A DNA stretch of 64,000 nt from positions 16,777 through 80,776 of the forward strand of contig DLGZ01000025.1 in NCBI GenBank assembly GCA_002482965.1, in the 5' to 3' direction. Positions 5,977-56,409 of this stretch are shown one piece after another (the first letter of the stretch is position 1; each line of letters begins with the position of its first letter). The position numbers were made by a program, and so were the translations under genes. Source of the DNA: Verrucomicrobiaceae bacterium UBA7681. GTDB taxonomy: Bacteria; Verrucomicrobiota; Verrucomicrobiia; Verrucomicrobiales; Verrucomicrobiaceae. Under the pieces are notes generated by a model. It had not been told where the DNA came from, ran no database searches, and saw only the letters and a list, made by a program, of their open reading frames with translations.

Positions 5977-5978
5977 GA

Positions 5979-10598: not shown

Positions 10599-10603
10599 GG
10601 CGG

Positions 10604-12863: not shown

Positions 12864-12892
12864 GGAGCGGAGTGCAAGGTGATGGCGGAGCG

Positions 12893-12912
12893 CCGCACAG
12901 AGGACTGTGCGG
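12893..12912. terminator. perfect 8-bp hairpin CCGCACAG-AGGA-CTGTGCGG in a convergent intergenic gap
   Basis: Read directly. Lies between the stop of the SDR gene (12863) and the stop of the minus-strand dehydrogenase (12999). No U-tract. Confidence 0.35.
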
Positions 12913-12998
12913 ACCACTTTGCTAGCGCTCATGCGACGCGCTGTGAATGGTTGGATGATTTTCCGAATTCGTGCTTTAAGAGAACTTGGAAGTTCGCT

Positions 12999-13871: not shown

Positions 13872-13929
13872 GTCCGGGCGAACTCACATCAGGCGGTGCC
13901 TGATGGCAAACTCCTTCCCAACCTACTTC

Positions 13930-17117: not shown

Positions 17118-20100
17118 TCAGGAAACTGTGCGGCGGCGGCGCAGGAAGCTGAAGAGGCCCAGCATGAGAAGGAGGATGCGGGAGGGCTCGGGGACGACAA
17201 CGATGACGCCGTAGGTGGTGAAGGCGCTGGTGTCCCATGAAAGCCCGGGATCCAGCGACACGCTTGAGAGGTCCAAATTCGCCGTGGTAAAGCTGCCGGT
17301 GCCTGCGAGTGAGTCCAGCGTGCCCACTGTGGTCCAGTCGAGGAGTTTGAAGATGTTGCCAGCGTTAAGTGTGGCGCTGTTGTTGTTCACCTTGATCGTG
17401 CCGCCTGCGGTGGTGCCCAGATTGAAGGTGCCGTTGGTCAGCCTGACGCTGTCATAATCTCCGGACTGGTCCCAAATGGTGGTGTAGGCCGTGCCGGTGG
17501 CACCGCCGTGGGTGTTCAAATAGGTGTTGGCGTCGGTTGAGAAATCGAAGGAGGCGTCAACCTGCGAAGTAGAGGTGAGGCCGAGCTGAATCTGGCCACC
17601 ATTCTGGACGTCCACCGCTGTGCCAGCGGCTGTGAAGGTCAGGGTTTGATTGCTGGTGTCCGTGGCCCCCACGCCTGGAGCGAGAACGGCACCGCTGCTG
17701 ATGACGGTAGCGCCGGCGATGCTGCCTGAGCCTGAGAGTGTGCCGTCGATGCTTACCGTAACGATGCCGGAGCCGGCAAGAGCGCCGCTGGCGCCATCTC
17801 CCACCTGCAAGGTGCCTGCGGCCACGGTGGTGGTGCCAGAGTAGGTACTGGTCTGGTTGAGCACGAGGATGTTGGCGCCCAGTTTCTTGAGACCCACGCT
17901 GTTTGCGCCGCTGTTGGTGTCGGCGATGACACCGTCATAGGTGAAACTGCCACCGGTGGCGTTGGTGGTGTCGAGGCCAATGAATGAGCCGTCTGTGAAG
18001 CCGCCGGTGGGGGTGCCTAGCGACTTGATGACGTCCACATCCGATGCGGTGAATTCGCCGGTACCGCCGACGTTGAAGGCGGCAGTGGCACCGCTGCTGA
18101 CGACGATATTGGCGTCTGTCCAGCTTGCGGGGGTGTTGTTATAGAGTGCTGTCTCCACAAGGAACTGCAGGGTGCCGGCGGTGACCGTGGTGGTGCCGGT
18201 GTAAGAGTTCACGCCATCCATGTAAAGGGTGCCGGAGGTGGTCTTGCTGAAGGCAGTGCCGCCATTGAGTTCAGCGAGATTTTTCAAGGTGCCGGACTGA
18301 GCATTGAAGGCGATGGCATTGGTGGAAGCGCCGATGGATCTGCCGGTCATGTCCAGCAGACCGCCATCGAGAGTGATGGAGGCAATGCGGGTTCCTCCGC
18401 CGGTGCCGCTCACGATGTCTCCCTGAACGGTCAGAGTACCGCCGGTGATTCCGATGGAGGCGTTTGCAGTGCCGGTCGTGGCAATGGCCATGGTGACGGC
18501 GGTGGTGGCCAGAGTGACGTCACCCCCAGAGACATTGAGGGCGGTGGTCGTTGAACCGGTGCCGTTGGTGTTGCTGTTGCCCATGATGAGGGCCTGGCCG
18601 CTGCCGGAGCCGATGGTGACGGTGCCAGCTGTGACATTGATGATGGAACTCACCGCTCCGGTGTTGGAGTTGCTGGCGAGAGTGGCGGCCGTGCCCGTGC
18701 CGGAACCGATGGCGACGATGCCGCCGCCGAGGTTGATGACGTTCGTGTTGTTGCCAGAGGATGTCTTCGAACCCATGGTGAGATTGCCGGTGGTCAGGGT
18801 GCCTGTGTCGAAGGCAAAGAGGTTTTCTATCGGGCCGGTTCTGGTGGCCTGAGTGCCAATGGTCACCGCCCCGAAGAGCAGATCCGCCGTATGTCCGGTG
18901 ACATCGAAGGTGTTCCGATTGCCCGCAGGCAGCCCCACTCCAGTGACGCCGTTGATGGAAGCCATATTGAAGGCGGCGGCAGACACGCCGTCGGCAGCGC
19001 GAATGGTGACTGTTCCGTTTGAATTGAAGAAGGTGATGGAACCCAAATCGCGTCCGCCGGTACCGATGTTGACCGCATCAACGTTGATGACGTTGGTGGC
19101 AGTGCCGAGTTGCAGCGCGTTGATCTGGCCGAGGTTACCAGTGTAGGAGCCACCGCCGCCCACGGTCAGCGCGCTGGCCGTAATGGTGGTGTTCTGCGCG
19201 AGGATGAGAGTGCCGTATCCGGTGCTGTTGGTTCCGGAGGTGCTGCCGATCTGAAGAATGCCGCTGGTGGTGTTCAGGGAGACATCCATGGTGGACAGCG
19301 CACTGAAGTCGGCGGTGGAGATGTTGGTGTTCGAGTTGCCGACAAGGAAGGTCACGCCCGTGCCAGTGGTGTTGATGACACTGAGGGCGCCCAAACCTGA
19401 CGCGGTGAAAAGGGTCGTGGAATTAGCCGCCCCACTGCCCAAGGTCACCGTGCCGCCAACTGTGAGGGTCTCCCCGGCACCGATGAGAATCTGATTGGTT
19501 TCTGCCGCTGTGTTCGTCTGCACGAGCAGGTTTCCGGCGAAGGTGGCGCTGGCAGTGGAGAGATCGAGCGTGCCTGCCGTGGAGGTGGAATTGGCAGTGC
19601 CGAAGTTCAACGCCCCCCCGAGGCTCTGGTCTGCGGTGAAGCGCAGGATACCGTCGTTGATGCTGGTAGCACCCGAATACGAACCGGGGCCACTGATGAC
19701 CCAGGTGTTCGTGTCCAACTTGATCAAGGTCAGTACGCCAAGGCCGTATTCATCGAGGCCACCCAGGGTGTTGTCCAGCAGAGGGTCGGAGAGTCCCCTC
19801 AGGGTGAGAGTTTTGTTGCCTGCGGTTTCAAACTGAACTCCGCCGAGCACCAGCGCGCCGGTGCCTGAAGAGTCCAGGGTGAGAGCACCGGTGGTGCCCT
19901 GCATGCCGATGGTGCGATCACTGATGCTGCCGCTGCCGGTGTAGATGAGCGTGGTGGCCACGGTGGAGAGACCCACGTGAATGACGCCGTCCTGCGCAGT
20001 GGCGGAACTGCCCAGCGCGCTGGCACCGCCGCCCACGCTGGTGATGGAGTTGAAGCTGAGAGTGCCAGCCTGAACTTCGACAGGACCAGCGAAAGTGCTC

Positions 20101-31385: not shown

Positions 31386-31441
31386 GCACGTAATGAAATA
31401 GTTGGGATTGGTCTTTCCATGACGGCAGGATGCACCGCACA

Positions 31442-31560
31442 TATGATCAGACAGGTTGTGGTAGAGTGATCAGTCTGAGTGATCTGCATTCTTTGGAACA
31501 AGACCAAAGTGATCCTTAGAACAACTCTTGGCCTATGTCTTAGCCGCTAAGAATTTAGTC
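31442..31560 (-). promoter_or_regulatory. AT-rich putative promoter/operator region upstream of the 4755-aa gene
   Basis: Marked GC drop versus the flanks. Four TGATC motifs (GATC at 31445, 31468, 31481, 31511), three of them as AGTGATC. Perfect 15-bp palindrome TCTTAGC-C-GCTAAGA at 31538-31552. Nearby TTAGTCT/TTAGACT direct repeats. Confidence 0.45.
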
Positions 31561-31784
31561 TTTATGTTTAGACTTCTAATTTCTTTACTTTCCCCACTGA
31601 CTCATCATTCATCGCTGATTTTTTCAATCCGATGAAGGCACGCAACCACCCACGGTACGTCCCATTGACCCGAGCACAATGTTGCCTGTGCCCCCTTAAA
31701 GACAGGTGGCCACTATTTAGGCTGCGTCTGCAAAACGCCTTACTGTGCCTGCCGCAGTTTCAGGAGGCGCTGAGAGGAGGCCGT

Positions 31785-43700: not shown

Positions 43701-46700
43701 GAGCGAGGGGTTGTTGAGGGCATTCTGATTGAGGCCCAGGATGGACCCACTGGGAACAAAGCCGCCGGCCCCCCAGGTTACCATGTCACCTGCTCCACCC
43801 AAGTTCACCGTGACACTCGTGGCAGTGGCCGTGCCAGCGCCAGCGCTGAACCCGCCATTGCCAAGCCATTGCACCTGGCCGGGGCCTGTGCCGAGAGAGC
43901 GTGTGAAGGTGGTGCCGTAGGTCGCAGTCAATTCGAGCTCTGCCAGATTGAAACCGGTGCCGCTGAAAGTGAGACTGCTCATTCCAGGCAATGCCGAGAC
44001 ATTGTTGAGGATGAGATACCCCCCTTGGATCGTGGTGGAGCCGGAATACGAGTTGGCACCCGACAACTGGAAGCCCGACGTCGTCGTGCCGCCGTTCACG
44101 ATCAAAAAGGTAGGGCCGCCACCGTCTCCCAAAGCGGCGACGAGGGTGGCGATTCGATCCGTGTCCGTTCCTTGAAGGGTGAGGGTGCGGCTGCCAGAAC
44201 CCAGAAAGGCGATTGCTGTCGTGTTATTCCAACCGCCATTGCCAGAACCAGTGCCCGTGGTGCTGTTGTAGGACAGCGTGCCGCCTGAAAGGCCAAGAGT
44301 GATTGCCTGGGTGATGCTGCCCGAAAGCGTGGTGCTGCCTGAAAACAACGTGCCCCCATTGAGGGTGATGCCGCTGGTGCTGCCCAGACGGTCAGGTGCG
44401 AGCGCCTGCAGCACACCCCCGTTGATCACAGTCTGCCCGGTGTAGTTGTTGAGATTGCTGGTGGTGGCGTTGGTCAGATTGAGCGTGCCGCCACCGGACT
44501 TGGTGATGCCAAAGCCGTTGGTGCTTCCAGCAATGCCGCCCACGCCGGCGCTGATCGTCAAGGTACCGCCCGCGTTGACATAAACGAGCAGTTCACCGCC
44601 GGAAGCCGTGCCCGTGCTGACCATGCCCAGCCCCGTGGCAAGCGCAGCCGTGCCGCTGATGGTACCGGTACCGCTGCTCAGGGCATAGAGAATGCCACCC
44701 GTGACGCTGCTGAGGGTCAAGCTGTTCGTTCCTGCCAGAGCCAGCGTGGAGGTGGCTGACATGCGGAGCGAGTTTGCCGTAACGCTGGCCCCGCCGGCGG
44801 CGGTCAGCGTCACGCTGGCCCCCATGGTGAAGTTCGTGGTTGTCTGCGTGCCGCCACCTGACGTCGTCAGCGTTGTGTACGAGGCATAGGGGGCCACCAG
44901 ATTGCCGCTATTGATCGCCCAGTCTGTCAAAGTGGCGCTGGTGTTGTAAGTGGCCCAGCCGCCGAGGATGCCTGCGGCGTTGTTGGAGTTGCCGGCAATG
45001 TTGATGGAGGTGCTGGCGGGCAGCAGGCTGAAGTTGATTGCCGCCCCGGCACTGCGGGAGATGGTGCCAAGCGTGAGGCCCACAGAGCTGGCGGAGCCCT
45101 TGGTCAGCGTGACAACGGAGTTCCCCGCCTGCAAGCTGGTGCTTGCAAACGCCTGCGTCACCGCGCTGGTGTTGGTCCCGCCGTTCACCGTCAGCGTACC
45201 ACCTTGCATCTGGAGGATTGAACTGCTGCTGATGAGGTTGCTCGTCGCGCCACCGCTGACGAAATTCAGAGCCAGGGTACCCGCGCCGACCGTCGTGGCT
45301 CCCGTGAAGGTCTCACTGTCGGTGGTCGGCGTGAGGTTCAACGTGCCTGCACCCACCTTCGACAGCCCGGCAGTGCTGCTGCTGCCAAAAGCTGTGGTGT
45401 AATTGATGGTGAGACCGCTGGCAATGTCCAGGATGAGCGTGCCGCCGGAGGTGAGCGTGAGCAAGGAGCTGTAGTCCGTCGTGGCAGCAGCCGGGGCATA
45501 GAGAAGACTGCCACCTGATGAACCGATAACAAGGGCACCCGGCAGTGCGTAACTGCCAAGCAGCCCGAGCAGGCCGCCATTGATGGTCGTGGTGCCGGAG
45601 AAGTTTGTGGACGTCGGGCCAGCCCCGAGGATCAAAGCACCACCGGTGATACTGATGCCGCCGGTGAAATTTTTGTCGCCCAGAAGGTACACAGTGCCAG
45701 GTCCCACCGCATTGAAAGTTTTGGCGCCGCCGGATTCGCCCACGGCACCTGTGATAACCAGGGAGGTATTGGCCGCAGCGCCGAAATTGACCGCGCCTGA
45801 GCTCTTGGCGAGCGTGATCGGAGCGGCAATAGTGCCCATGCCGCCGACAGGCATGCCAAAGCCAAGGAGATTGGGAACCGCAACGGTGGCCGTGCTCACG
45901 GTGGTGATGTTGGTCGCGCCGCTGCTGCCATCACGGATCACAAAGGCATTATCCACGACGACACCATTGGCACCGATCGCAAGGGTGGCGGCGTTGCTGC
46001 CGCTGGTATCGCCCACATTCACCGTGCCGGCGGCATTGGCACCCGTGGCGGTGTAAACGACCGAACCGTTCAACACGTTGACCGTTCCAGTGTTGGCGCC
46101 AGCAGCTCCAAGCACAAGATAGGAACCCCCGGTGACATTGATGGTGCCGGTGAAGCTCGTTGACGCAGCATTGATGCCGAGCGCACCGCCACCAGTCGTG
46201 GTGATCGTACGCGCCGTACCACCGTCATCCAACCCACCGAGGTTCAGCGTGGCAATACCTGAACCGTTGACGTTGGTGAGGTTGAAGATGACATCGCTCG
46301 TGAGCGTCGTCGAGGTGAAGGTCAGATTGGCCACACCGGGGGCGGTGTTGAGATTTCCATTCGCAAAGGTGACTGTACCGCCGCCTACAGTCAGATCGCC
46401 CATCGTCAGGGTGATATTGGTGGCGGCAGCCGTGGTCCGCCCCGACTTCAAAGTGACGTCACCGGCAATGGTGACATCGTTGCCAAAAATCCCGCCGGTG
46501 TTGAGACGCAAATCGAGCGTCGTCCCGTCGTTCAGTGTGATCGAGGCTTTGTTGGTGCCTCCAAGCGCCGCCGCATTTGCCTGCAACTGCAGGGTGGCCG
46601 TGCCGCCCACATTGATGGATGAACCGGACTGCACTCCTGTTGTCAGGGTGCTGCTGCCGTAAGCAGCGGTCAGAACATCATAGTTGCCGCCAAGCAACAA

Positions 46701-49700
46701 GGTTCCCGCGCCTGTCAGATTTAAAGTACCGTTGAGGGTGAACTGTCCGGCGTCATCAAACTGGAAGGTCGCTCCACTGGCAACGCTCACTGTGGTCGAA
46801 CTGCTGCTATTCTGACCAAAGCTGTAGAACACCGAATTGGCCGATGTGAAGGCCACTGGGTTCTGCGATGCAGTGGCCACGTAGGTGCTGCCGCTCTGAA
46901 TGAAAACCTGCTTGGGCTTCTGGTTCAGCGCCGCCGTGCCGAGATTGAGCGTGGTGACGATGGTGTTGACTGACAGCGTCGAATTTCCGGCCACGATGAC
47001 GTCACCGGTGAAAGTGTTGCTGGCAGACAAAACCACCGTGCCGCCTCCCGTGATGGTGAGAGAATTATTCCCCACCACACCCGATGCCGCACCGCCGCTG
47101 ATCACGCCCGAAAGGGTCAGGATGGTACCGGAACCGACGCTGATGGTGTCACCCGTAGCACTGCCGGCCTGAGTGCCAAGGGCGATGGCCCGCGCGATGG
47201 TGGCTGTGGAGCCGGTGTACTGCAGGGTGCCCACGCTGGTGGAAGTGCCGATGGTGAGGGTGTTCAAGGAGCTGCCCAGTTGCGCATCCGCGCTGAACTG
47301 CAAGGTGCCCGCCTGCACATTGACGGTGGTGGCCGCGCCGCCGAAGAGATTGCCCGCGCTGCTCAAGATGAGGGTGCCTGCACCCGCCTTGCTGAGGCTG
47401 TTCCCTGCTGCGCCTGAAATAACGCCGCTGACAGTCAGCACCGTGTCTGCATCCGCCACGGTCCAGGTCTGGGCAGCACCCAGATTAACCGGAGCGGAGA
47501 TGCTGATGCTCGCGGGTGCACCAGTCAGAACGGTGATGCCTGTACTCGAACTGGACGGCGCAATGGTCAGAGTGTTGGCGGCGTTGGCTCCCGCTGCGAT
47601 GGAGATGCTGCCCACGGGGCCGCTGCCAAGCGCGCTGTTAAACTGGAGGTCGTTGAGGATGACGTTCATGCCGAGCGTCGTGGCAATCGAGGTACCGCTC
47701 TGGCCATTGGCGCTGAAGATGGCGGTGTTGGCAAAGCCCGGCATGGCCTGTGAGTTCACTGTACCCGTCACGTCAGTCCAGTTTGACTGAAAGCTGCCGT
47801 TGAGGGTGTTCCAGGAGTTGTCCACACCGCCCTTCCAATACAGGGTGGTTGCGGTAGCTGCTCCGAGGGTCACGCTGACAGCGGTGTCGGAGATGGATTG
47901 TGCGGTGGTCGCAAAACCGCCCACGGCGGAGATCTGGTAGGTGGCACCGCTGAGCCCGCTGGACGCGGAGAGCAGCGTGTAGGTGCCGGAGGCGATACCG
48001 CTGATCGCCGAAAGATTGATGAGCACGGTATTGGCCGTCGTGGCTGAATTGTTGGTGGTGAGAGTGCTTGCCGTGGCACCGAGGGTCAGGCCCAAGGTGG
48101 CTGTACCGGAACCAGAACCCAGATTCAATGTGGTCAGATTGGACAGAGCTGCCACGGAGCTGCTGATCATGTTGAGCGTACCGCCGCCAGCCACCGTCAC
48201 ACCGGTCATGGAGCCGGGGGTGGTCAGCGTTCCCAAAAGATTCAGCGTGCCAGCATTCACGGTGAGCGCTCCTTTGATGCCGACCGCGCCGGTGAAGCTT
48301 GCTGCTCCGGTGCCGGTCTTGGTCAGATTGAGGGCGCCGGCGCCACTGTTGGCGATGACGCCGGCGTAAAAAGTGCCGGTCGTGTCATTGTTGCCGATGG
48401 TCAGGGTGGTGCTCGAACTGCTGGTGTTGTCAATCGTTCCACCAGCAGCAGCGGCGGTGACCGCATTCAGGTTTATGTTGAAGCCGTTGAGATCAAAGGT
48501 GCCTGCATTGATGATCAGATTCCCCTTCCCGTCACCAAATGGCAGCGCATTGTTGACGCCTGCCTGCACGATTCCTGCAGCTGACAGGGTGGTGTTTCCT
48601 GCATAGGTGCTCTGGCCGCTGAGCAGCAACTGGCCGACGCCCGCGACGGTCACACCGCCAGCACCGGAGATCACGGAGGAGATGGCCAAGTCCACAGCAG
48701 CGTTGGTGCTGTTGCCCACGGTGATGGTGCGCGTGGCGGAACCAAGATCCAGAGTGCCGCCGATGATCTGTCCACCGAGTGGGTTGCCTGACGCTGAATA
48801 GGTGATGCCATTCAGTATGCTGAGAGTGCCACCATTGAGATTCACAACCGGAGTACTGGTCGCCGTGCTGCCACCCAGGGCCAGCACATTGTTCAGGCTC
48901 TGCACAGTGCCGCTGAGGTCCAGAGTCGCGGTGACACCGGCACCCGTGGCGGTCACCGTCCAGGTGCCTGCCGTCGAGAGCGCGCCGTTGACACCGGCGG
49001 TCAAGGTGCCGACTTGAATGATGTTCGCGCCCGTGGTGGTGTTGACACCGGCAAGCACCAGATTGCCAGCACCTGTCTTGGTGATGCCGCCGGCAGCACC
49101 AGTGATCGCCGAAGTGATCGTGAGATCGGCCGCCGCGTTGATGCTGTCAGCGATGGCAAAGGTGCGTGCCGCAGTCATCGTCAGAGTGCCGCCATTGATG
49201 AAGGCACCCAGGAATCCGTTCGCGGCCGTCGCGTTGACGGTTGCGGTGAGAGTGCCCGCGAGCGTGAGGTTGCCACCGGCACCGATGTTGATGATCGCCT
49301 GGCTGGTCGCCGTGGAAGTGGTGCCATACAAGGTGGGGCCGGCCAGTGTCTGAGAGTGACCATTGAGGTCCAGCATGGCGACGATAGGACCGGCTGCATT
49401 TCCAAGCGTGACAACCGTCGTGCTGGTGAGTGCATTGTCCACGCCCCACTGGATGGTGCCGTTGTTTACCGTGGTGGTGCCGGTGTAAAGGTTGGAGGCG
49501 TTTAAGGTCAGCGTACCGGTGCCGTTTTTGATAAAATTCAGGTTGGCGGCGGTGCCCGTGGCCTGCAACACACCGGAGTAAACGGTGCTCTGGTTGTTGC
49601 CACCCACGGTCAATGCCGCGGCTGTTCCGCCCGAGTTTTTGATATTGCCCGAACCCGCAATGCCACCCACCGTGAGCGTGAAATTGTTCATCTCCACCAG

Positions 49701-52700
49701 ACCGCTGGCACCTACGTTCAAGTTGCCGCCGGTGGAAGCATTGATGAACGTGGCCACACCGCCCTGCAGGGTGCCGGAGTTCACATAGGTGGCCCCCGTG
49801 TAGGTGGCTGCCGCGGTGATTGAGAGCGTGCCGGTGTTGTTCAAAGTGAGCCCGCCTGCGCCTGAGATGACTCCGTTAATCGTCAGGGTGGTGGCTGGCG
49901 CGATGTCGAGCATCGCATTGCCGCCGGTGAGCGAATATGTGTGCGTGCCGGTGCTAAAAGTGGCGGTGGTTTGAAGCGTCGCCCCATCGGTGAGATTGAT
50001 GGCGCTGGTGAGGGTGTTACCGAGCTGATTGTTGTTGCTGATGCTGAGAATCCCCGCATCAACAAATGTCGCGCCTGTGTAGGTGTTAACGCCGGAAAGG
50101 ACCAGCCTGCCAGTGCCCGCCTTGGTCAGCGTGGAAGCGCCGGTGCCGTCCGCAATGATGGCGCTGATGGTGAGGGTGCCCGCACCATACTGGTGAATGA
50201 TGAGGTCGGAGTTGGTGGCGACACCGCTTTTAAGCGAACCGGTGGTGCTGCTGATGAGGTAGCCGTTCGCCCCAGTATAGAGCAAGCCGCCAGTAGTGAT
50301 GGTGAGAACGTTGCCGGCGAGCGCCAGTGTGCCACCTGCCGCGACGTCTGTGATTTTCAGGGTGTTGACGGCCTCACTGGCGGTGATGCCTCCGACCAAC
50401 GTGCCCGTCTGCAAGTAGTTGATGGTCGAGGTGGAGCCCGAGGCCACCAGATTGGTGTAGCTGCCGAGACCGGTGGTCACGGAGCCCGCGCCGGAATTCG
50501 TGGCCCAGTTGAAGCCGCCCGCCGTGCCATCTGAAAAAACGATGCGGCCAGCACCCAGAAGGCCGGTGGCATCTGCTGCTGTCGCAAAAGTCACGGATGT
50601 GTTGGTTGGCGCGGTGATGAGCATCGCGCCACCTGCCGCAGTCGTGGTCAGTGCGCCGGTCACATTCAGCAAAGTGCTGCCGCCGCCACCGCCGTCCACC
50701 AAGGTGATCTGTCCGCCGCGAACACCGAGGGTGAACGCATTCAGCGTTTGCGTCACCGCAGCCCCGCTGCGGCCTGTCACATTGAGCGAGCCGCCTTGCA
50801 GAGTGAGGGTGGCAACCTGGTTCATGATGTTGCCGGTCACCGAACCGGCGGAATAGTCGAGCTTGATGGTGCCGGCGTTCAGTGTCCAAGCCCCCGTCGC
50901 CGTGCCTGCGGCAGAGGTGAGAGTCAGTGTGCCGCCGCCGGTTTTCGTCAGGGTCAAACTCGCCGGGGTGGTCGAATTGAAAACGCCACTGAAGGTCGTA
51001 TCGAAATTGCCGGCGAAATTGCCGAGAGTCAGGGCAACTGCAGTGGCATTTGTGTTGGTGACCACGCCCGAGCCGGTGAACTGGCCTACCGTGACCGCAA
51101 CAGCATTGAGGTCGAGCGTGCCGTTCACAGTCAAGGCCGTGGCCGCAGGAAGGAAGGCTGCAATGCCGCCTTTCAGCGTACCGCCGGAATTGATCGTCGT
51201 GGAACCCGCAAAGGTATTGGCGGCGCTGAGGGTCAAAGTGCCGGTGCCCGTTTTGACGAGAGAGCCAGTGCTGTAAATCAAACCGGCAAAGGTGGTGTCA
51301 GTGTTGTCGCTGCCCACCGTCAGGGTTGCCCCCCTGAGGCTGACAATACCGGCCGTGGCGCTACCACCTGAAAGTGAGCCAAGGGAATTGTCAAAACCAG
51401 CCAGGTCCAGAACTACCCCGGCAGTCGTGGCCAATGACACCGCCGAGTTCGGACCGAAGGCCGACGTCGTACCCGCGCGGAGAACCCCGCCATTCACCTT
51501 GGTGGCACCGGTGTAATTGTTCACACCATTGAAGGTCAGAACACCGTTTGACGATTTGGTGAGGCCGCCGCTGCCGGAGATCACGCTGTTGATCCGCAAA
51601 TCCGAGGTCACCGTGTAAATAATGGCCTCCTGCGCGCCGAACGCCAGATTGCTGACGGAAATGCCGGTGTATCCATTCCCTGCAAGCGACAGAATAGCAC
51701 CGCTGTTGAGTGTGAGTGTCCCGGAACCGGACACGCTGCCGCCTGAGTTAAGACGCAGTGAATTGATCTTCGTCCCGGCGCTGTCGAGCCCGGAAACGAG
51801 GCTGCTCAAGCTGACGTTGTCCAGAAAGGTCGCTGCATCAGCGATTGAGCCGGCATATTCCGCCGAGGTCAGATTGCGCAGGCCGCCGGCAAGCATGGAC
51901 CCGTTGATCTTGTCGGTCATGAACCCGTATTGGGCACTGCCACTTAGCGCCGTGTCCTGCCCGAGGACAAAGGAATTGATGCTGATCGAGGTCGAGCCGG
52001 CGAGGCCGGTGCCGCCAATCGCATCAGCCCCCGCACCATTGGCGGTCACAATGAGGTTGGTGTTGTTTGCCCCGGCGGCGGCACCGAGGTTGGCCCCGGT
52101 CAGGAGCAGCGTGGCACCCGCAGCGCGGGTGAGGCTGGAGACTGTGACGGAAGTAGCTCCCGTCGTATTCGCCGTCAGATTGATGATGCTGTTGCCCCCG
52201 GAGTTCAGCGCCAGAGTTCCAACCGCATCCGTGCTGGCGCCTGTGCCGCTGATGTAATTGAACGTACCGTTGGTAAGCGTCAGGTTCTGTGAGTTCAGGC
52301 GGTTCAGCTTGATGCCTCCAGCTGCCGTGGTGTTGTCCACCGTGAGTGTGGCACCAGGATTGATTGCGATTGAGGAATTGTTGATTGCGCCATCAGCCCC
52401 TGCGATTTTGAGAATGCCAGTGTTGACGTTGGTGTTACCGGAGTAGGTGTTGCTGCCTGCGAGAATCCAGGTGCCAGTGCCCGCCTTGGTCAGCGAGATG
52501 ACCGCACTGGTGCCATCACCGATGACGCCAGCGAATGTGTTGCTGCCGGTATTGGCCCCCTGCAGCGTGAAGGTCTTCGCGCCCGCGCCGCTGACCATCA
52601 GATCGGTGTTGACGGTGATGGTATTGGCAGCCGAGGCGTTTGAATTGTCAATCGTCGCCGTACCACCGGTGCCCATCAAATCGAACTGGCGGTTGTTCAA

Positions 52701-54629
52701 GACGAGCGCGGAAATGGCGGCGGTGCTCCATTGAAAGATGCCATTGCCGGTGGTGGCCTGAAGACGAATCGCGCCATTGGCCGAAGCAGAATCCGCCAAA
52801 CTGGCGATGACACCCGTCACCGAGTTCGACGTGAAGCCGATGACCAACACCCCTTGGAAATCATTGGCCGTGTTGGAGAGGGTGACCCCATGTGTGCCTG
52901 AGGTCGTCTCAATGATGATACCGCCGGTGCCGGTGACCTTGCCGGCGATGACAAGGTCAAAGGCGGCTTCGGTGAACTTCGCAATCGCCCCGTTGTTGAT
53001 CGTGATGGTGCGTGCGGCATTGAGCGTGAGGCTGGCAGTGATCTGCAGAGTGCCGCTGCTGTTGAAGGTGAGGCCTCCCGTCAAGGCCCCGAGATTGGTG
53101 TCTGCGCCGATGCTGATCGCAGCAGTCGTGGCAGCGCCAATGGCCGGCCGCGCTGCAGCGTCGATCACGGTGCCACCGCTGTAGCTGTTTGAGGTTGAGC
53201 TGAGAGTCAGTGCGCCAGCCGAACCCGTCTTCACCAAGGTCACAGCGCCACCGTTGTCGCTGATCGGCGCACTGATGGTGATGCCGGCACTGCCGGTGTT
53301 AACATAAAGGTTGCCGCCGCCGGTCGGAGTTGTCAGCACACCGCCTGTTCCGGTTGCCACCGTCAAGAGCGTCGCCACACCATTGAGCAGCCCGTAGGTT
53401 TGCAGATTTGCCCCTGCTGCCAGCGTGAGAGTGGAAGTGGCTCCTGTGTTCAGCAGGGCCGCAATGGTGCGAGTGGTGGCCAGCGTCTGTGAAGCGGAAC
53501 TGGTGTAGGCATTGCTTGCATTGGTCCAAGTCGATTCCAACGATCCGGCAATGCCCGCACCCACGACCTGTGAAGAGGCATTGTAAACGGCGTAGTCGGT
53601 CTGCAGCGCGGCCGTGGTCCCCACGGTAGCCCAAGGGCCGATAATCTGGCCGGCAGTGGTGGCGGTGGCACCCGTGACAACAATCATGTTTTTGGTCGTG
53701 TTCAATCCCGACGCAGAAGAAAAGGTGATCGCGGAAGTGTTGGTGGCACCGGTACGGGTCAGGCCGGAAAGGGTCAGGGTCTGACTGCCAGCGCCTGCCT
53801 GATTGGTGGTTTCGACAAGATTCAACTGCCCGCTGGTCAGCGCCACCGTGCCGAGTGTTTCAGCGTAAACAGCGGTGCCTGAAGTGTTGGTGAAGGTGAT
53901 CGTGCCGCCGTTGGAGGTGATGCCGGCACCATTGGCAACACGATTGAGCAAAGCCTCAGTAGAGGACGTATTCGTCAGGGTGATCCCGCCACCGTTGAGC
54001 GTGATGCCGGTGGTGGCAGCCAATGCCAGATTGCTGGCGGCCAGGGCCATGGTCATCCCGTTGTTGATCGTGGTGGTGCCTGACCAGCCAGTGCCGTTCT
54101 GCGTCCCGTTAAAGGTAAGCGTCCCTGCGGTCTGACCTCCATAAATGCCCCCGCTAAGTGTCACATTGCTAGATGCAACACTCGACACCCCGCTGGTGAT
54201 CGTGGCGGCGGCGATGTTGTTCAGTGTGATCAGATTATTCGCCGCACCAAAGGTCAGCGTTTTGCTGTTTGTGGTTCCATTAATCGTGTATGCCGTCGTA
54301 TTGAACATCAAGCCGCCAACGGTCACGTTGTCTGTGAGTGTCACCGTTCCGGCCGCGCCCCTAAATACCGCCGTGTCATTGTTCTCATTGACCCAGGAAG
54401 TGTCGCTCGTTCCGTTAAACCAGTTTTGCAGCGGAGTGCCTGAGAGTGAATTATTCCAATTCCCCGCCCCACCTAAACCTGCTCCTGTGCCGACATTGTT
54501 GTTCGCTGCATTTGTATCAGTGTCCCAATAAAGAGTCGCTGCCTGCAACGGCTGCCCCACCTGCCACGAAAGCATCAGCACGAACATCAGTGTGCCCAAG
54601 GAACGGCGAAAAGCGCGTAAGTAACTCAT
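31785..54629 (-). CDS. giant (7614 aa) secreted autotransporter-associated beta-strand repeat protein with PEP-CTERM sorting signal
   Basis: Uninterrupted 22,845-nt ORF with ATG at 54629. Signal peptide MSYLRAFRRSLGTLMFVLMLSWQVGQPLQA, then an ATLYWDTD..NW..NW head box. Very many G.G.L.L.G.NTY(T/S)G.T.(I/V)..G.L units and ADQL.(L/F)NGG..NRG(I/V)T motifs. C-terminus VPEPSRLLFLMLGLFGLMVRRRRSVR. No beta-barrel domain. Confidence 0.95.
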   Translation of the reverse strand: MSYLRAFRRSLGTLMFVLMLSWQVGQPLQAATLYWDTDTNAANNNVGTGAGLGGAGNWNNSLSGTPLQNWFNGTSDTSWVNENNDTAVFRGAAGTVTLTDNVTVGGLMFNTTAYTINGTTNSKTLTFGAANNLITLNNIAAATITSGVSSVASSNVTLSGGIYGGQTAGTLTFNGTQNGTGWSGTTTINNGMTMALAASNLALAATTGITLNGGGITLTNTSSTEALLNRVANGAGITSNGGTITFTNTSGTAVYAETLGTVALTSGQLNLVETTNQAGAGSQTLTLSGLTRTGATNTSAITFSSASGLNTTKNMIVVTGATATTAGQIIGPWATVGTTAALQTDYAVYNASSQVVGAGIAGSLESTWTNASNAYTSSASQTLATTRTIAALLNTGATSTLTLAAGANLQTYGLLNGVATLLTVATGTGGVLTTPTGGGNLYVNTGSAGITISAPISDNGGAVTLVKTGSAGALTLSSTSNSYSGGTVIDAAARPAIGAATTAAISIGADTNLGALTGGLTFNSSGTLQITASLTLNAARTITINNGAIAKFTEAAFDLVIAGKVTGTGGIIIETTSGTHGVTLSNTANDFQGVLVIGFTSNSVTGVIASLADSASANGAIRLQATTGNGIFQWSTAAISALVLNNRQFDLMGTGGTATIDNSNASAANTITVNTDLMVSGAGAKTFTLQGANTGSNTFAGVIGDGTSAVISLTKAGTGTWILAGSNTYSGNTNVNTGILKIAGADGAINNSSIAINPGATLTVDNTTAAGGIKLNRLNSQNLTLTNGTFNYISGTGASTDAVGTLALNSGGNSIINLTANTTGATSVTVSSLTRAAGATLLLTGANLGAAAGANNTNLIVTANGAGADAIGGTGLAGSTSISINSFVLGQDTALSGSAQYGFMTDKINGSMLAGGLRNLTSAEYAGSIADAATFLDNVSLSSLVSGLDSAGTKINSLRLNSGGSVSGSGTLTLNSGAILSLAGNGYTGISVSNLAFGAQEAIIYTVTSDLRINSVISGSGGLTKSSNGVLTFNGVNNYTGATKVNGGVLRAGTTSAFGPNSAVSLATTAGVVLDLAGFDNSLGSLSGGSATAGIVSLRGATLTVGSDNTDTTFAGLIYSTGSLVKTGTGTLTLSAANTFAGSTTINSGGTLKGGIAAFLPAATALTVNGTLDLNAVAVTVGQFTGSGVVTNTNATAVALTLGNFAGNFDTTFSGVFNSTTPASLTLTKTGGGTLTLTSAAGTATGAWTLNAGTIKLDYSAGSVTGNIMNQVATLTLQGGSLNVTGRSGAAVTQTLNAFTLGVRGGQITLVDGGGGGSTLLNVTGALTTTAAGGAMLITAPTNTSVTFATAADATGLLGAGRIVFSDGTAGGFNWATNSGAGSVTTGLGSYTNLVASGSTSTINYLQTGTLVGGITASEAVNTLKITDVAAGGTLALAGNVLTITTGGLLYTGANGYLISSTTGSLKSGVATNSDLIIHQYGAGTLTISAIIADGTGASTLTKAGTGRLVLSGVNTYTGATFVDAGILSISNNNQLGNTLTSAINLTDGATLQTTATFSTGTHTYSLTGGNAMLDIAPATTLTINGVISGAGGLTLNNTGTLSITAAATYTGATYVNSGTLQGGVATFINASTGGNLNVGASGLVEMNNFTLTVGGIAGSGNIKNSGGTAAALTVGGNNQSTVYSGVLQATGTAANLNFIKNGTGTLTLNASNLYTGTTTVNNGTIQWGVDNALTSTTVVTLGNAAGPIVAMLDLNGHSQTLAGPTLYGTTSTATSQAIINIGAGGNLTLAGTLTATVNATAANGFLGAFINGGTLTMTAARTFAIADSINAAADLTITSAITGAAGGITKTGAGNLVLAGVNTTTGANIIQVGTLTAGVNGALSTAGTWTVTATGAGVTATLDLSGTVQSLNNVLALGGSTATSTPVVNLNGGTLSILNGITYSASGNPLGGQIIGGTLDLGSATRTITVGNSTNAAVDLAISSVISGAGGVTVAGVGQLLLSGQSTYAGNTTLSAAGIVQAGVNNALPFGDGKGNLIINAGTFDLNGFNINLNAVTAAAAGGTIDNTSSSSTTLTIGNNDTTGTFYAGVIANSGAGALNLTKTGTGAASFTGAVGIKGALTVNAGTLNLLGTLTTPGSMTGVTVAGGGTLNMISSSVAALSNLTTLNLGSGSGTATLGLTLGATASTLTTNNSATTANTVLINLSAISGIASGTYTLLSASSGLSGATYQISAVGGFATTAQSISDTAVSVTLGAATATTLYWKGGVDNSWNTLNGSFQSNWTDVTGTVNSQAMPGFANTAIFSANGQSGTSIATTLGMNVILNDLQFNSALGSGPVGSISIAAGANAANTLTIAPSSSSTGITVLTGAPASISISAPVNLGAAQTWTVADADTVLTVSGVISGAAGNSLSKAGAGTLILSSAGNLFGGAATTVNVQAGTLQFSADAQLGSSLNTLTIGTSTSVGTLQYTGSTATIARAIALGTQAGSATGDTISVGSGTILTLSGVISGGAASGVVGNNSLTITGGGTVVLSASNTFTGDVIVAGNSTLSVNTIVTTLNLGTAALNQKPKQVFIQSGSTYVATASQNPVAFTSANSVFYSFGQNSSSSTTVSVASGATFQFDDAGQFTLNGTLNLTGAGTLLLGGNYDVLTAAYGSSTLTTGVQSGSSINVGGTATLQLQANAAALGGTNKASITLNDGTTLDLRLNTGGIFGNDVTIAGDVTLKSGRTTAAATNITLTMGDLTVGGGTVTFANGNLNTAPGVANLTFTSTTLTSDVIFNLTNVNGSGIATLNLGGLDDGGTARTITTTGGGALGINAASTSFTGTINVTGGSYLVLGAAGANTGTVNVLNGSVVYTATGANAAGTVNVGDTSGSNAATLAIGANGVVVDNAFVIRDGSSGATNITTVSTATVAVPNLLGFGMPVGGMGTIAAPITLAKSSGAVNFGAAANTSLVITGAVGESGGAKTFNAVGPGTVYLLGDKNFTGGISITGGALILGAGPTSTNFSGTTTINGGLLGLLGSYALPGALVIGSSGGSLLYAPAAATTDYSSLLTLTSGGTLILDIASGLTINYTTAFGSSSTAGLSKVGAGTLNLTPTTDSETFTGATTVGAGTLALNFVSGGATSNLISSSSILQMQGGTLTVNGGTNTSAVTQAFASTSLQAGNSVVTLTKGSASSVGLTLGTISRSAGAAINFSLLPASTSINIAGNSNNAAGILGGWATYNTSATLTDWAINSGNLVAPYASYTTLTTSGGGTQTTTNFTMGASVTLTAAGGASVTANSLRMSATSTLALAGTNSLTLSSVTGGILYALSSGTGTISGTAALATGLGMVSTGTASGGELLVYVNAGGTLTISAGVGGIAGSTNGFGITKSGGGTLNLTNATTSNLNNYTGQTVINGGVLQALAPDRLGSTSGITLNGGTLFSGSTTLSGSITQAITLGLSGGTLSYNSTTGTGSGNGGWNNTTAIAFLGSGSRTLTLQGTDTDRIATLVAALGDGGGPTFLIVNGGTTTSGFQLSGANSYSGSTTIQGGYLILNNVSALPGMSSLTFSGTGFNLAELELTATYGTTFTRSLGTGPGQVQWLGNGGFSAGAGTATATSVTVNLGGAGDMVTWGAGGFVPSGSILGLNQNALNNPSLGSVNFQNGIDFGALTTRTIEVGNSSYGFNTASIAASNAGYDAQLSGNLISTVTGGFTKTGTGVLWLNGDNSGFLGTLNIANGTVLFSNAAALPATLTLSSTISLTAGAVGGVVLQGATNFNTLYSHINSSTNGELMLDTSSSESINFNAAGFTNARFGAFGNVAYTGLFTPGTSGTYLINGVSGNLVASAAGQNRLMLSRTNALTGASSTLNVGTGILLLGGANDIGGAVNIQSVPLVGTNSISGAAFVWIANDKALGTGTITLTNTITAANQAGYPGLGAAYGDHTLANNIVLNDAGGASGNNFFLGGDTASDGVPSAGRMTYSGTVTIQGPTTITNNLQFNQRTTGLMFTGQITSTGSSPNFYFNGGSSLIVFNNLSGTASNYTTSNIFLNSAATFLIGQASDLGDTATARGVSYNSNGAVFGILPTAGNVTTSSNITFVANGNSFAQVVDVPMATQTFTLTSGIVQTSARTGQLYTKTGLGTFDIGVGLNPNSGASTWGTAGITIAQGTLSANFTTSAVASNMIRLANSSATAAPLTLSGGTLLLTGKSSTANSQAFGALTVTQGASAITLNSNGGTLTTSFTSMATRAAGGTVALTLPTAGPASVAVTAGLVAQNSLLVDAAATKSAFMVTGTQGGAITGWAGVSGGTIVALSNYTLTTSSTLSGNATVDTGVNTTLVANAAADSLRFNLAESRTLNLGGNTLNVGGILVTAAVGGNGSTITGGSLSTASGAAANADLVVYQANTAGALTIGANIVDNGANAVALTKSGAGELVLTGSNTFSGSLFLNEGKVTFNSVSQMGAGGSAINLNGAVLHYTGSGDISNAGTLTNGSVNVARHTSIDVDSGATLTLSGTVTSTLLSPTYELLTKTGAGTLVLGGSSNNVLYVNVAQGTLILNKSGGNVNALGISSTIVLSNIGLTVEDGALAQLGGDTANGDQILNASSVQLNGSGMLDLAGHSETIDGLGGSSSSVITNSSASGAVLTVGNSSMTLGASTQFDGSLQDGTGTLGLTMIGGNIFTLTGINTYTGKTTIIGQQYLTSGIYFGGISISSELNLGNNPANFTADQWTLNGGRLVMTENVTLDAARNNVGITLATGGGIFEVASSKTFTIAAANIIAGTGRFTKEGAGTVVMLGGANTYTGKTVLNLGILSISAQGALGGNPASATADQLTFNGGQLVTTATLSLNDANRGVTIQGYGGTLTPALGTTLTLPNTLSGTGDLTLNGAGTVVLGGINTPWTGKTILLGGELQISTNLNLGSPPATAVADQLQISNNAIFHLTADMAFNANRGVTIGSGGATITTDAGKLVSVNGAVALNAGTLTKAGTGGLVLLGSNSAVSGTQVAVMAGVLRLASSGALSSNSNLNLSGGVVELASSDFTRALGAGNNQVQFTASSGFSAFGAARNVNLGGAAATVVWNSGSFVPTGSALVLSSTTSDNTVTFQNGIDTNGAVRTVQVDDGSADTDAVLSGAVSDSSSGGGILKTAAGTLSLTGSSTYSGTTQISGGRLLAGAANVFSSASAFTLDNTSGVSLDLNGNNQVIGSLAGGGTTGGNVSLGAGVLTTGGNNGTTVFDGVISGTSGGLTKTGSGSMSLTNAQTYTGATTVSGGALFVNSTLATSGITVGGGSTLGGSGSVSALTTVSSGGTILAGDVAGDGSLTMSGGLTFLGGGTINVGQIAETASNVLNVGALTVGSVAGSITINVIANSPSGYANSTPYTLLTYTGGSILGTAGFSGFTLGTIAGTNSRTSGLLSDTGSAITLTLTADNPKWTGFDVTSGLVSSRWAPIDAALLNWKLISAGTSTSYLEGDVVLFDDSAIGSTTVDISEGNVSPSSVTFNNSSLTYTLTGSNGIAGTANLNKFGTGTLIINNTNSFNGGVILNGGVIQLGSAGALGTTNGLLFGANVAAGTKLQLNSNSITLAGLNTNATPGSAVVENGGASAATLTLNLQTVGGPPSGDASSVFAGVLQDGSSGKLGLTLTGNGTLTLSGANSYTGLTTISGGTLLIGDGSTTGSIVGTGGITNNAALVFNRSNAYSYTGNITGSGTTLVTGGGALTLTGTLDSTGGTTIDAANTLNVGNGGAGGSISGDILNNGALTFNTTSTGLVVSGSITGSGTLENIAGFTILTGTNNFGSGSSTTITGGTLQIGNGGTTGSITGDILDNGVLAFNRSDSSTFAGNISGTGSVLINMSSPTAVKTLSGTNTYGGGVTVAQGVLALGSATAVPTGSAVLVGASGTSGILDLNGFNLTVSALATAGTASDQTITNNSATSNSVLTYSSATSSTFGGLISNGASRNISVVVTGGGTLVLASTNTFTGGVIVLNGTIMLGADGALGTGAISLGTTGSNGVLDLNGFSQTVSSLAEGAGAVAGSQIIGNSSTTGDGFLTINGTSTFGGLIQDALGSGTFKTGLTIASGTTTLTNANTYSGATQINSGATLQLGNGGTTGSLSNGSTITDNGTLSFNRSDNVTFGATVSGSGGLQQVGSGILELNGDNSYSGLTVMNNAAGTLKTSGTNSSSTGGTTLTAGTLLLNNSSANNGGLAGGTIIISGGTIDNVTGSALTLVQNNNMTLGGSFIFTGSNDLNFGSGAVNVGASALTITMGGTNRMLSLGALTNTANAVNTITVTAGAGSSLVIGSYALSNNAANRVDVLTGNVANIIINGAVTNGGTSTTSGLNYTGTGILTLNGANNYGGLTSQTTSGGTIIFNGSNSGAGGTTLTAGTIQLGGATNGGIASGTLTLTAGVLQAINAARTLSNAVTLTAVTVSGSQSLTINGNFTFVSGARTLTSSITGGNLLTLGGNVFLSDSATVAGAATIAGSGLTTLSGNIANFNGSGVAGALIITNTSTTTLSGANTYSGLTTMNAAAGFLVLSGSNSSAGATTLTTGTIQFNSSSALGGGSGLGSGTLTLTAGTLQALNAARSITSNVLMTAVTVSGSQSLTMNGSFTFVSGSRTLTSSITGGNLLTLGGNVFLSDVSGTAGTQTIAGSGNTTVSGNIADFNGSGLAGTLTITNTGITTLGGANTYTGTTTMNAAAGTLVFSGSNSSAGATTLTTGMLQFNSNSNGGLASGLLTFTAGTVQALNASRSIANAITLTAVTVSGTENLTFNGKLTGSTGASRTLTNNIGAGKTLTFTSVDINPETANARTLTIAGTGATAITGAIANGNGTTANNLTITNTNTTTISAASGVSTYTGTTTAGAGTLVIGATNTLPVANAFVLGTLATGGAAATLDISGFNQTVGNFSVSSDNVTANQLLTASGRTLTINGNVTIGSSNATLTTTNFTTSGSGTVTVNNTTANGFFTVGGYVGTTSGQGNLATADFSSLSSLSILLNASTGTFRVSNNSTANTANAYSVLTLATDNTITAKTFAVGDGGQYGGSVGQVNQLKLGSGTNAINADVFNIGTGTRDFGSVTFNSGSGTIIVRAADGVSRVAFNMGAIGGGTGVATATGVQNTFDVTGHNADLLFGAVAIGTQSTRGDTLTNVFSFDTGTLDMTSLTMSVKTGTPLAGVPLVSSTLNLGGGTVTIGSGILQMGQAATATNQAVATINVTGGTVSIGATAGTAITMASAATNTTATASLNLTGGTTTVNGNIVRALGAGTSSATVNLDGGTLDMTGSNIGSAAQNVTFVAAAGTLKNLGELNGGGTLTKTTGGTLVLAGTNTYTGKTVISAGKLSISSESNLGANPGAATADQLTLNGGTLLTTATLAIQNSNRGITVGASGGTIETAASTTATVSSVVTGEGTLTKEGAGTLLFTAVNTNTGSTEVNNGILGGTGVLGGDLNVHAGSTIAPGIAAEGQLTVGGNFTVSAGGTLLMQLGGATTNDASTVQAQMGSNGNLTGLVGSVPSAWSNYVVGTTLHDNIMVNGTAVPVIDGTLKIDSVFLYGYIPAYGDVFKLIDWTATGSMPVSTTFDYGGIVLGDGLSFNSDLFASNGIIVVVPEPSRLLFLMLGLFGLMVRRRRSVR
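31788..31865 (-). other. PEP-CTERM sorting signal of the 7614-aa protein
   Basis: GTT CCG GAG CCC TCT (VPEPS) read on the minus strand at 31851-31865, followed by a hydrophobic helix and RRRR. Confidence 0.9.
32760..33840 (-). repeat. C-terminal module shared with the 4755-aa paralogue (copy 2; boundaries approximate)
   Basis: Same collinear motif series as 18270-19430. DNA identity is roughly 70% by eye in the aligned stretch around 33261-33520 versus 18853-19110. Confidence 0.8.
33950..35480 (-). repeat. in-frame tandem repeat, about 507 bp (169 aa) x3, inside the 7614-aa gene (boundaries approximate)
   Basis: AGAGAGGAACACATTGCC at 34761 recurs as AGAGAGAAACACATTGCC at 35268, an offset of 507 = 3 x 169. 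Protein units: LTLTAG.LQA.NAAR....V..TAVTVSGSQSLT.NG.FTFVSG.RTLTSSITGGNLLTLGGNVFLSD.... The third copy is more diverged, and weaker copies extend toward about 36200. Confidence 0.85.
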
Positions 54630-54854: not shown

Positions 54855-56372
<1,518 letters not shown>

Positions 56373-56409
56373 GGAGTCTGCGCCGTCATTTCTCAGTCAC
56401 CCAATTTTT

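Follow-up and report, generated by a model that had tools for sequence, protein, structure and literature searches.

Two adjacent giant genes for predicted PATR beta-helix proteins with PEP-CTERM tails in a Prosthecobacter genome

A 64,000-nt stretch of DNA from Verrucomicrobiaceae bacterium UBA7681 (GenBank assembly GCA_002482965.1, contig DLGZ01000025.1, positions 16,777 to 80,776 of the forward strand; hereafter the window) contains two adjacent giant genes, here named A and B, which lie in the same orientation and together encode 12,369 amino acids (aa). The host genus is Prosthecobacter. A preliminary description of this DNA had reported two co-oriented open reading frames (ORFs) of 14,268 and 22,845 nt, and both are real, intact and located on the minus strand. 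Chance cannot account for open frames as long as 4,755 and 7,614 codons, and at the level of sequence both genes are confirmed by orthologues. An alternative start is available for A, where the first ATG lies at 31442 (17118..31442, 4,774 aa). The previously given spacer of 342 bp is correct for this longer version of A; for the 14,268-nt version with which it had been combined, the gap is 399 bp.

Both products are built to the same plan, and the positions of their parts are collected in Table 1. Each starts with a Sec signal peptide that has a basic n-region, a hydrophobic core and an A-x-A-type cleavage site, called from the sequence by eye and not by a dedicated predictor, and each continues with a Trp-rich head box, in the order originally described. 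Two Trp residues of the box, W36 and W58 (A numbering), are nearly invariant in an A-anchored N-terminal alignment that includes the N-terminus of B. Next comes a very long repeat region. With the NCBIfam model of the PATR beta-strand repeat of about 30 aa (TIGR02601, cutoff 19.85), A scored 193 bits in 13 stretches, and B, which was scanned as two halves in both the Pfam and the NCBIfam searches, scored 125 and 115 bits in 9 and 12 stretches. The Pfam PATR model (PF12951) agrees, finding 12 and 11 stretches in the two B halves. Both proteins therefore belong to the PATR/TIGR02601 family, with multiple repeats above the curated cutoff. Strict regular expressions for the repeat matched one or two copies only and were replaced by an iterated hidden Markov model (HMM). 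This lenient HMM, built from A and B, recovered 37 repeat-like sites in A and 70 in B, often about 100-110 aa apart. The beta-strand repeats noticed at the outset are thus present as 13 (A) and 21-23 (B) curated stretches, and in larger numbers under the lenient model. Thr, Gly, Ser, Ala, Leu and Asn account for about 70% of the residues in A and B, and the composition is uniform along the length of the proteins. The scarcity of charged residues, Cys and aromatics was also borne out: Asp, Glu, Lys and Arg make up 8.9% of A and 5.3% of B, both proteins being net acidic; Phe, Trp and Tyr make up about 5% of each; and the only Cys residues are two in A, both within the signal peptide, with none in B.

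Near the C-terminus, A and B share a module that is 46-50% identical between them, compared with about 25% overall. The module had been recognized before with a size of about 380 aa; its existence stands, and its size is corrected to about 470-500 aa. It carries the motifs GTGxRDxG, IRAxDG..FNM, NTFDVTGHxADLxF and FSFDTGTL, ends in a PATR repeat, and contains three nearly invariant residues, R176, R193 and H229 (alignment numbering). No Pfam family matched its first ~340 positions, and no dedicated Pfam or NCBIfam model was found for the whole module of about 480 aa; sequence relatives in PDB were obtained for its PATR part only (IcsA, Ssp and fusolisin). Among orthologues, the module is no better conserved than the body (76% vs 80%). 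Since it is widespread and lacks a family definition, we consider that it deserves one. A second stretch shared by A and B covers the last ~80 aa (F-K-L-[LI]-DWT ... S[WF][DN][TS] ... VVVPEPSR). Both tails read VVVPEPSR, then about 14 hydrophobic residues, then RRRR, and the terminal PEP-CTERM signal of the preliminary description was recovered in both by TIGR02595 above its cutoff of 16 bits.

Table 1. Positions of the two giant genes, the spacer between them and their parts in the window
Feature	Position	Strand	Description
Gene A	17118..31385	-	4,755 aa, 14,268 nt, start MKATRK; intact ORF; giant PATR beta-helix protein with PEP-CTERM tail
A signal peptide (aa 1-31, MKATRKLFSVPAWCGLFVFTLLLCQLESAKA)	31293..31385	-	by eye; ends ESAKA; residues 1-27 helical in AlphaFold2
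A Trp-rich head box (AAFYWDSD..W..NWW..W)	31101..31292	-	conserved in 37 relatives
A copy of shared C-proximal module (aa 3937-4430)	18096..19577	-	within the 819-aa modelled tile
A PEP-CTERM signal (VVVPEPSRILLLMLGLFSFLRRRR)	17130..17195	-	TIGR02595 20.4 bits (cutoff 16); kept in all orthologues
B-A intergenic region	31386..31784	-	399 nt (342 nt with A start at 31442)
Gene B	31785..54629	-	7,614 aa, 22,845 nt; intact ORF; giant PATR beta-helix protein with PEP-CTERM tail
B signal peptide (aa 1-30)	54540..54629	-	by eye; ends QPLQA; A-x-A-like site
B Trp-rich head box (ATLYWDTD..W..NW..W)	54360..54539	-	at mature N-terminus, directly after signal peptide
Three tandem ~169-aa units in B (aa 6324-6816)	34182..35660	-	protein 52-72%, DNA 70-80% identity; 507-nt spacing
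B copy of shared C-proximal module (aa 6877-7345)	32595..34001	-	46-50% identical to A copy
B PEP-CTERM signal (VVVPEPSRLLFLMLGLFGLMVRRRR)	31797..31865	-	TIGR02595 17.5 bits (cutoff 16)

To obtain a structural view, AlphaFold2 was run with homologue alignments on two tiles of A, namely its first 660 and its last 819 aa. The C-terminal tile was predicted as a beta-helix with a mean predicted local distance difference test score (pLDDT) of 90.3 and a predicted template modelling score (pTM) of 0.87, and the N-terminal tile as a beta-helix from about residue 80 onward (mean pLDDT 84.8), with pLDDT below 50 for head box residues 28-75. Both tiles are modelled as confident beta-helices, in line with the beta-helical fold that had been proposed. 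In a Foldseek search against PDB, the top matches were the autotransporter passengers Ag43, Ssp, SepA, EspC, IcsA, Hap and TibA, and no convincing enzyme match was obtained, alginate lyases of polysaccharide lyase family 6 (PL6) and phage tailspikes appearing at E>0.1 with a template modelling score (TM-score) <0.2. Strand counts by DSSP in the two tiles gave about 34 residues per coil, and a canonical beta-helix rises 0.48 nm per coil. On this basis, the modelled rods would be roughly 70 nm (A) and 110 nm (B) long. Autocorrelation of hydrophobic, Gly and Asn positions showed no sharp coil period, and these lengths are therefore only rough estimates. The term 'filaments' used previously is not supported, as each product resembles a single-chain rod and there is no sign of polymerisation.

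DNA self-comparison found no internal repeat above 80% identity in A or B, and the longest has 236 nt. The closest repeats are three units of about 507 nt in B (70-80% identity), and the remaining ones show 60-75% identity over 40-70 nt. For internal protein repeats, whole-protein self-BLAST was uninformative and tiled BLAST was used, in which the B units are 52-72% identical and no A pair exceeds 36%. This triplication of a ~169-aa unit appears fairly recent and is the sole sign of recent repeat expansion in either gene. Collapse of the assembly is unlikely because near-identical DNA repeats are absent; in addition, independent assemblies of relatives reproduce gene A, which speaks against the assembly concern that accompanied the first description.

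Orthologues of the C-terminal 819 aa of A, with 62-91% identity, are present in nine GTDB species genomes: seven labelled Prosthecobacter (including the isolate P. fluviatilis KACC 12649, where contig NZ_JBHSMQ010000003.1 bears the A orthologue), one labelled Verrucomicrobiaceae bacterium and one metagenome-assembled genome named 'Rhodobacterales'. At seven orthologue loci, the frame is open across the full 10 kb upstream. Five clean Prosthecobacter orthologues are collinear with A over 4,077-4,144 codons, with 11-78 gap positions, amino acid identity of 76-84% and a ratio of nonsynonymous to synonymous substitution rates (dN/dS) of 0.22-0.26 (about 0.23); the dN/dS values of the loci L004 and L008 were discarded, as the global alignment had slipped (about 400-600 gaps). 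Identity of the A orthologues is flat, at about 80% along the whole rod. Relatives of B were found via re-analysed homology-search matches and a search of cluster representatives: P0180 is 75% identical to B over 4,595 aa, and the B-like C-terminus of the related contig L018 is 68.6% identical. When the B C-terminus was compared with metagenome contigs, only one distant locus (L012) was retrieved. As for 'Rhodobacterales bacterium 32-66-7', its contig NCDS01000088.1 (L010 / P0004) encodes a C-terminus 79% identical to A and is probably a mis-binned Verrucomicrobia contig.

We then searched 1.84 billion cluster representatives with a profile covering the module and the C-terminal tail. It matched 18,528 proteins at E<=0.001, of which 1,446 reached E<=1e-30; part of the signal stems from the PATR part alone. 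Among 136 newly retrieved top matches, 51 have at least 4,000 aa and 80 possess a PEP-CTERM-like tail, and several relatives of 7-8 thousand aa have the full architecture (signal peptide, W..NW head, module and PEP-CTERM). The architecture is thus common, with many proteins of 4-8 thousand aa among its representatives, and the rarity formerly attached to it cannot be maintained. Public names of the relatives include 'autotransporter-associated beta strand repeat-containing protein' and 'fibronectin-binding autotransporter adhesin'. The protein homology index listed nothing above 1,433 aa, and the representative library holds many relatives of 4-8 thousand aa; giant homologues are therefore under-reported in the index, and the genes could look rarer than they are. 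A and B are diverged paralogues in a large Verrucomicrobiota family of giant, non-enzymatic proteins predicted to form right-handed beta-helical rods. As predicted from sequence, the family architecture comprises a signal peptide, the Trp box, a long PATR beta-helix, the ~480-aa module, a conserved 'F-x-L-x-DW ... WDTS-x-F' stretch and PEP-CTERM.

The genes surrounding the pair in the window encode two Band_7 proteins, an epimerase, PSCyt/PSD1/DUF1501 proteins, two sulfatases and DUF1080 proteins. The synteny comparison in relatives that had been recommended was carried out, and tandem giants recur in four contexts with a variable partner. In L018, a B-like end is followed by a 333-bp spacer and an A-like start. 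In L015-L017, a further PEP-CTERM giant, called at 6,994 aa or more and not a close B orthologue, precedes an A-like start (72% identity) by 230 bp. In L020 (1-27336), two A-like giants lie 387 bp apart, the first of them a PEP-CTERM protein of 4,593 aa. The A-like start of L013 has no such partner: it lies behind a sugar kinase, with no giant upstream. Where giants are adjacent in related contigs, the upstream member ends in PEP-CTERM, and no accessory gene is common to the contexts of the window, L018, L015-L017, L020 and L013. The pair had been viewed as a dedicated locus or system, a view that is not sustained: the window contains no exosortase, transporter, barrel or accessory gene for it, and the upstream partner varies. 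Because the partner varies, no accessory gene is shared and no secretion gene occurs in the window, the pair looks more like the product of a local duplication of paralogues than like a dedicated system.

Further examination of A and B with Pfam and NCBIfam revealed no domain beyond PATR/TIGR02601 and PEP-CTERM, and the terminal pieces matched no barrel, TPS, RTX, type IX secretion system (T9SS), Ig, lectin or enzyme family at E<=5, in agreement with the earlier statement that no enzymatic, lectin, Ig or barrel domain is visible. A type Va barrel (PF03797 / TIGR01414) was found neither in the whole proteins at E<=0.01 nor in the C-terminal 350 aa at E<=5. As regards type Vb secretion, the TPS domain is absent from A and B, whose N-terminus is the Trp box, and an Omp85-family gene is absent from the window. 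For adhesins of the type I secretion RTX class (LapA, SiiE, MpIBP), no RTX or Ig-like match was found, and a Sec signal peptide is present; the sole ABC gene (661-2574) has two fused ATPase domains, ABC_tran_Xtn and a CTD, with no membrane domain detected. The T9SS sorting domain (TIGR04183) gave no match in the NCBIfam or Pfam scans, nor did polysaccharide lyase, Beta_helix or CASH models, for which the module was tested to E<=5. What A and B do possess are the features of PEP-CTERM cargo, namely a C-terminal TIGR02595 signal, a Sec signal peptide and the presence of several paralogues (two in the window), and they would qualify as such cargo, judged from sequence, in every testable feature.

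Among systems described so far, the PEP-CTERM cargo of Verrucomicrobia (Verrucomicrobium spinosum and Akkermansia muciniphila; PMC1569441, PMC4960237) resembles A and B in its signal peptide, its PEP motif followed by a helix and an Arg cluster, its richness in Ser, Thr and Asn, its low homology to characterised proteins and the occurrence of more than one paralogue per genome. V. spinosum belongs to the same bacterial family as the host of A and B. The difference lies in size, as A and B (4.7 and 7.6 thousand aa), known here from sequence, are far larger than typical cargo. The TIGR02601/PF12951 database family in Prosthecobacter, Luteolibacter, Roseimicrobium and related genera includes A and B as members, and nothing essential differs: homologues are 35-91% identical, share the repeats, the module and often also the PEP-CTERM tail with A and B, and in many cases reach 4-8 thousand aa. 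Type Va passengers (the self-associating Ag43 and TibA; IcsA, Ssp and SepA) share the right-handed parallel beta-helix, PATR motifs and a most conserved part near the C-terminus, as in the autochaperone region. However, a classical autotransporter identity was rejected for A and B, because they have no C-terminal barrel or linker, carry a PEP-CTERM tail instead, are 5-10 times longer and show weak structural matches (E>0.001). The giants of Omnitrophota and other Planctomycetes-Verrucomicrobia-Chlamydiae (PVC) bacteria (10.64898/2026.06.07.730766; 10.1101/2023.11.21.568195) are similar in having one dominant repeat (PF12951, up to 38 copies) and a suspected role in adhesion, but they come from another phylum, the focus of these surveys is on 10-80 thousand aa, above the size of A and B, and no PEP-CTERM tails or module are reported there. 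Finally, PEP-CTERM proteins of flocs and biofilms (Zoogloea and Aquincola PepA; Nostoc CrtB cargo; PMC9850573, PMC12188702) have the sorting signal and a proposed link between surface and exopolysaccharide (EPS) in common with A and B, but are small and unrelated in sequence; a link of A and B to EPS is only an analogy.

The reading that we favour, and regard as reasonably probable, makes A and B single-chain beta-helical rods, exported by Sec and sorted by an exosortase, that stand on the cell surface or in the matrix and have a non-enzymatic, adhesive or scaffolding role. Established by the analysis are the gene structures, the motifs, the predicted fold of the two tiles, conservation and selection, and the distribution of the family. 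How the proteins are processed and pass the outer membrane, where they are located and what they do, exosortase dependence and surface location included, we infer from family signatures and the literature. In this scheme, Sec would export the chain and the signal peptide would be removed, after which the C-terminal hydrophobic helix and Arg cluster would keep it anchored in the inner membrane. Cleavage at the PEP motif would follow, by an exosortase whose gene lies in another part of the genome, and the enzyme would pass the product on, perhaps to a carrier glycan or lipid. The outer membrane would be crossed by the PEP-CTERM route, where folding of the PATR beta-helix outside the cell, on the model of autotransporter passengers, may help to pull the chain through. 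The outcome would be a rigid, acidic, Thr/Gly/Asn-rich rod, about 70 nm long for A and 110 nm for B, that sits at the cell surface or within the exopolysaccharide matrix and acts as an adhesin, an aggregation factor or a matrix scaffold.

Published work provides the background for this scheme. PEP-CTERM was first found, in 65 copies, in V. spinosum (Haft et al. 2006, PMC1569441), where a cognate exosortase is present (PMC3237569), and 9 of the 23 PEP-CTERM proteins of Akkermansia have been detected by mass spectrometry (PMC4960237). In Nostoc, PEP-CTERM proteins reach the exoproteome in dependence on the exosortase CrtB, and the way in which such proteins cross the outer membrane was still called unclear in 2025 (PMC12188702). 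For PATR, a promoting effect on the secretion of passengers has been reported (Doyle 2015, as cited in PMC9977779). Giant genes are a frequent feature of Verrucomicrobiota (10.1101/2023.11.21.568195), and PATR-dominated giants have been catalogued in Omnitrophota (10.64898/2026.06.07.730766). A literature search for Prosthecobacter together with PEP-CTERM or exosortase found nothing.

Several observations weigh against the favoured reading. The two modelled tiles cover 1,479 of the 12,369 aa, and every Foldseek match has E>0.001. The Pfam PEP-CTERM model (PF07589) remained under its gathering cutoff in both proteins (17.4 and 18.5 vs 20.7), although it likewise misses the PEP-CTERM set of V. 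spinosum (Haft et al., PMC1569441). Pfam identified no exosortase, EPS-export, Omp85, secretin or outer-membrane gene in the 64-kb window. Moreover, N-x-S/T sequons are not enriched relative to shuffled sequence, and they therefore give no pointer to heavy N-glycosylation.

A bolder version, which we regard as unlikely, is that PATR-rich beta-helices with PEP-CTERM are the cargo of a barrel-independent, exosortase-coupled export, with the module nucleating folding and the rod spacing the cell. Here passage through the outer membrane would take place in the unfolded state, perhaps with the chain bound to a glycan carrier; the module may be an autochaperone-like folding nucleus or an anchor, with PATR-assisted folding extracting the remainder; and a length-conserved rod of about 0.1 um could keep the zone of exclusion or contact around the cell at a fixed width. 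If this were true, no other cargo would be as extreme as these giants or tell as much about the way out of the cell that PEP-CTERM proteins take.

The rods might instead stay in the envelope, tethered to the inner membrane or free in the periplasm, as an internal scaffold or spacer. An enlarged periplasm is typical of PVC bacteria. No outer-membrane export component is linked to the genes in the window, a ruler or scaffold role would fit the strictly conserved length of the orthologues, and the PEP-CTERM proteins ScyE/F of Nostoc are documented only in the periplasm (PMC12188702). We nevertheless find this improbable, because a rigid rod of an estimated 70-110 nm is several times the usual width of the periplasm, PATR is otherwise known from passengers that fold outside the cell, and PEP-CTERM proteins do occur in exoproteomes and outer-membrane fractions (PMC4960237, PMC12188702).

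More doubtful is a carbohydrate-active or carbohydrate-binding beta-helix of the pectate-lyase or CASH-like kind, in which the module would be the active or binding site and the proteins would act on sulfated polysaccharides together with the sulfatases and DUF1080 proteins. The thought comes from the two sulfatase genes and the 3-keto-disaccharide-hydrolase-like gene directly upstream of B, from the nearly invariant Arg, Arg and His of the module, and from the PL6 lyases and phage tailspikes among the weak Foldseek matches. Those matches are too poor to carry it (see above), no lyase, hydrolase or Beta_helix/CASH model matched, even at E<=5 for the module, and the sulfatase genes are divergent from B and do not adjoin the A-like genes of L013, L015-L017 and L020.

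Least plausible of the functional alternatives is that A and B are split, type V-like passengers exported by an unlinked barrel of the Omp85/TpsB or autotransporter type, the PEP-CTERM tail being incidental. PATR is a hallmark of autotransporter passengers, the sole PDB sequence matches are IcsA, Ssp and fusolisin, and A and B are most alike near the C-terminus, where passengers have their autochaperone region; yet neither a PF03797 barrel nor a TPS domain was detected, no transporter gene occurs in the window or related loci, and the tail is not incidental, since every orthologue keeps it, as do 80 of the 136 newly retrieved top representatives. That the giant ORFs are an assembly artefact of collapsed or chimeric repeats, or decaying pseudogenes, can practically be dismissed: the sequence is repetitive and of low complexity, and an A-like gene has frameshifts in L018, but internal DNA repeats stay at or below 80% identity (longest 236 nt), the frames are open over 14.3 and 22.8 kb, and in five independent Prosthecobacter assemblies the match to A is collinear for 4,077 codons or more, showing few indels and a dN/dS near 0.23.

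Overall, the feature is confirmed as real and the preliminary description as a good one, with the status as a system and the rarity overstated. A and B do not represent a new kind of system, because PEP-CTERM, PATR and giant PVC genes have been described already and close homologues are annotated. Their value is that of a defined example, both for how PEP-CTERM proteins cross the outer membrane and for the role of PATR without an autotransporter barrel. Prosthecobacter has cultured strains, including P. fluviatilis KACC 12649 with its A orthologue, and since length and sequence are conserved along the rod, the results of deletion, proteomics and electron microscopy would be interpretable.

Besides the coding sequences, the region upstream of A contains a perfect inverted repeat, CTTTGG-N7-CCAAAG, at 31491-31509, about 106-124 nt before the A start, which could be an operator site. 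The repeat block (TTTGG[G/T]CTTGTTCCAAAG..GCAG.TC) also occurs in the equivalent spacer of L018 (~2975-2995), and it was not found upstream of B or of the A-like genes in L013 and L015. Shuffling of the window produced at least one match to the inverted repeat in 23 of 100 cases, so one such match is not rare by chance. No terminator-like site was found between B and A, promoter and terminator scans were uninformative, and Rfam scans of the window and both upstream regions identified no riboswitch or other known RNA.

Some additional observations concern the related contigs and the neighbouring genes. In L018 (GCA_040384145.1), the A-like gene at 3093-10961 is broken up over different frames into three ORFs (443, 356 and 1,822 aa), and the B-like gene changes frame near its visible start; these breaks reflect either a noisy assembly or gene decay. 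Upstream of the L020 giants lie the envelope and lipopolysaccharide genes LptF/G, a lipid A acyltransferase/heptosyltransferase fusion and FtsW/RodA. Downstream of A in the window, a convergent Band_7 (SPFH) pair at 14936-16986, possibly HflK/HflC-like, is accompanied by an epimerase-like ORF, and this group is syntenic in L008 and L009, which derive from P. fluviatilis and another Prosthecobacter genome (Band_7 pairs at 12507-14551 and 12724-14762, respectively). The minus-strand run at 4612-12265 encodes PSCyt1 with WD40, PSCyt2 with PSD1 (DUF1549/DUF1553), an 807-aa PPC-domain protein and DUF1501. Such PSCyt/PSD1/DUF1501 runs are typical of Planctomycetes and Verrucomicrobia, and a similar PSCyt/PSD1 and DUF1501 pair is located near the A-like gene in L013. 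On the other side, the genes at 54855-58463, two for sulfatases and one with a weak DUF1080 match (3-keto-disaccharide hydrolase-like), are divergent from B, and a second, stronger DUF1080 gene lies at 3427-4206. Long ORFs without Pfam matches at 12879-14060 (plus strand) and 11691-12740 (minus strand) overlap the epimerase-like and DUF1501 ORFs, and gene starts are uncertain in 12879-14898 and 10604-12740. On the plus strand of the window, nearly all 2-kb bins have a strongly positive GC skew (0.04-0.29), and the cumulative skew rises monotonically with a sole dip at 54-56 kb; this skew is unusually strong and independent of gene strand.

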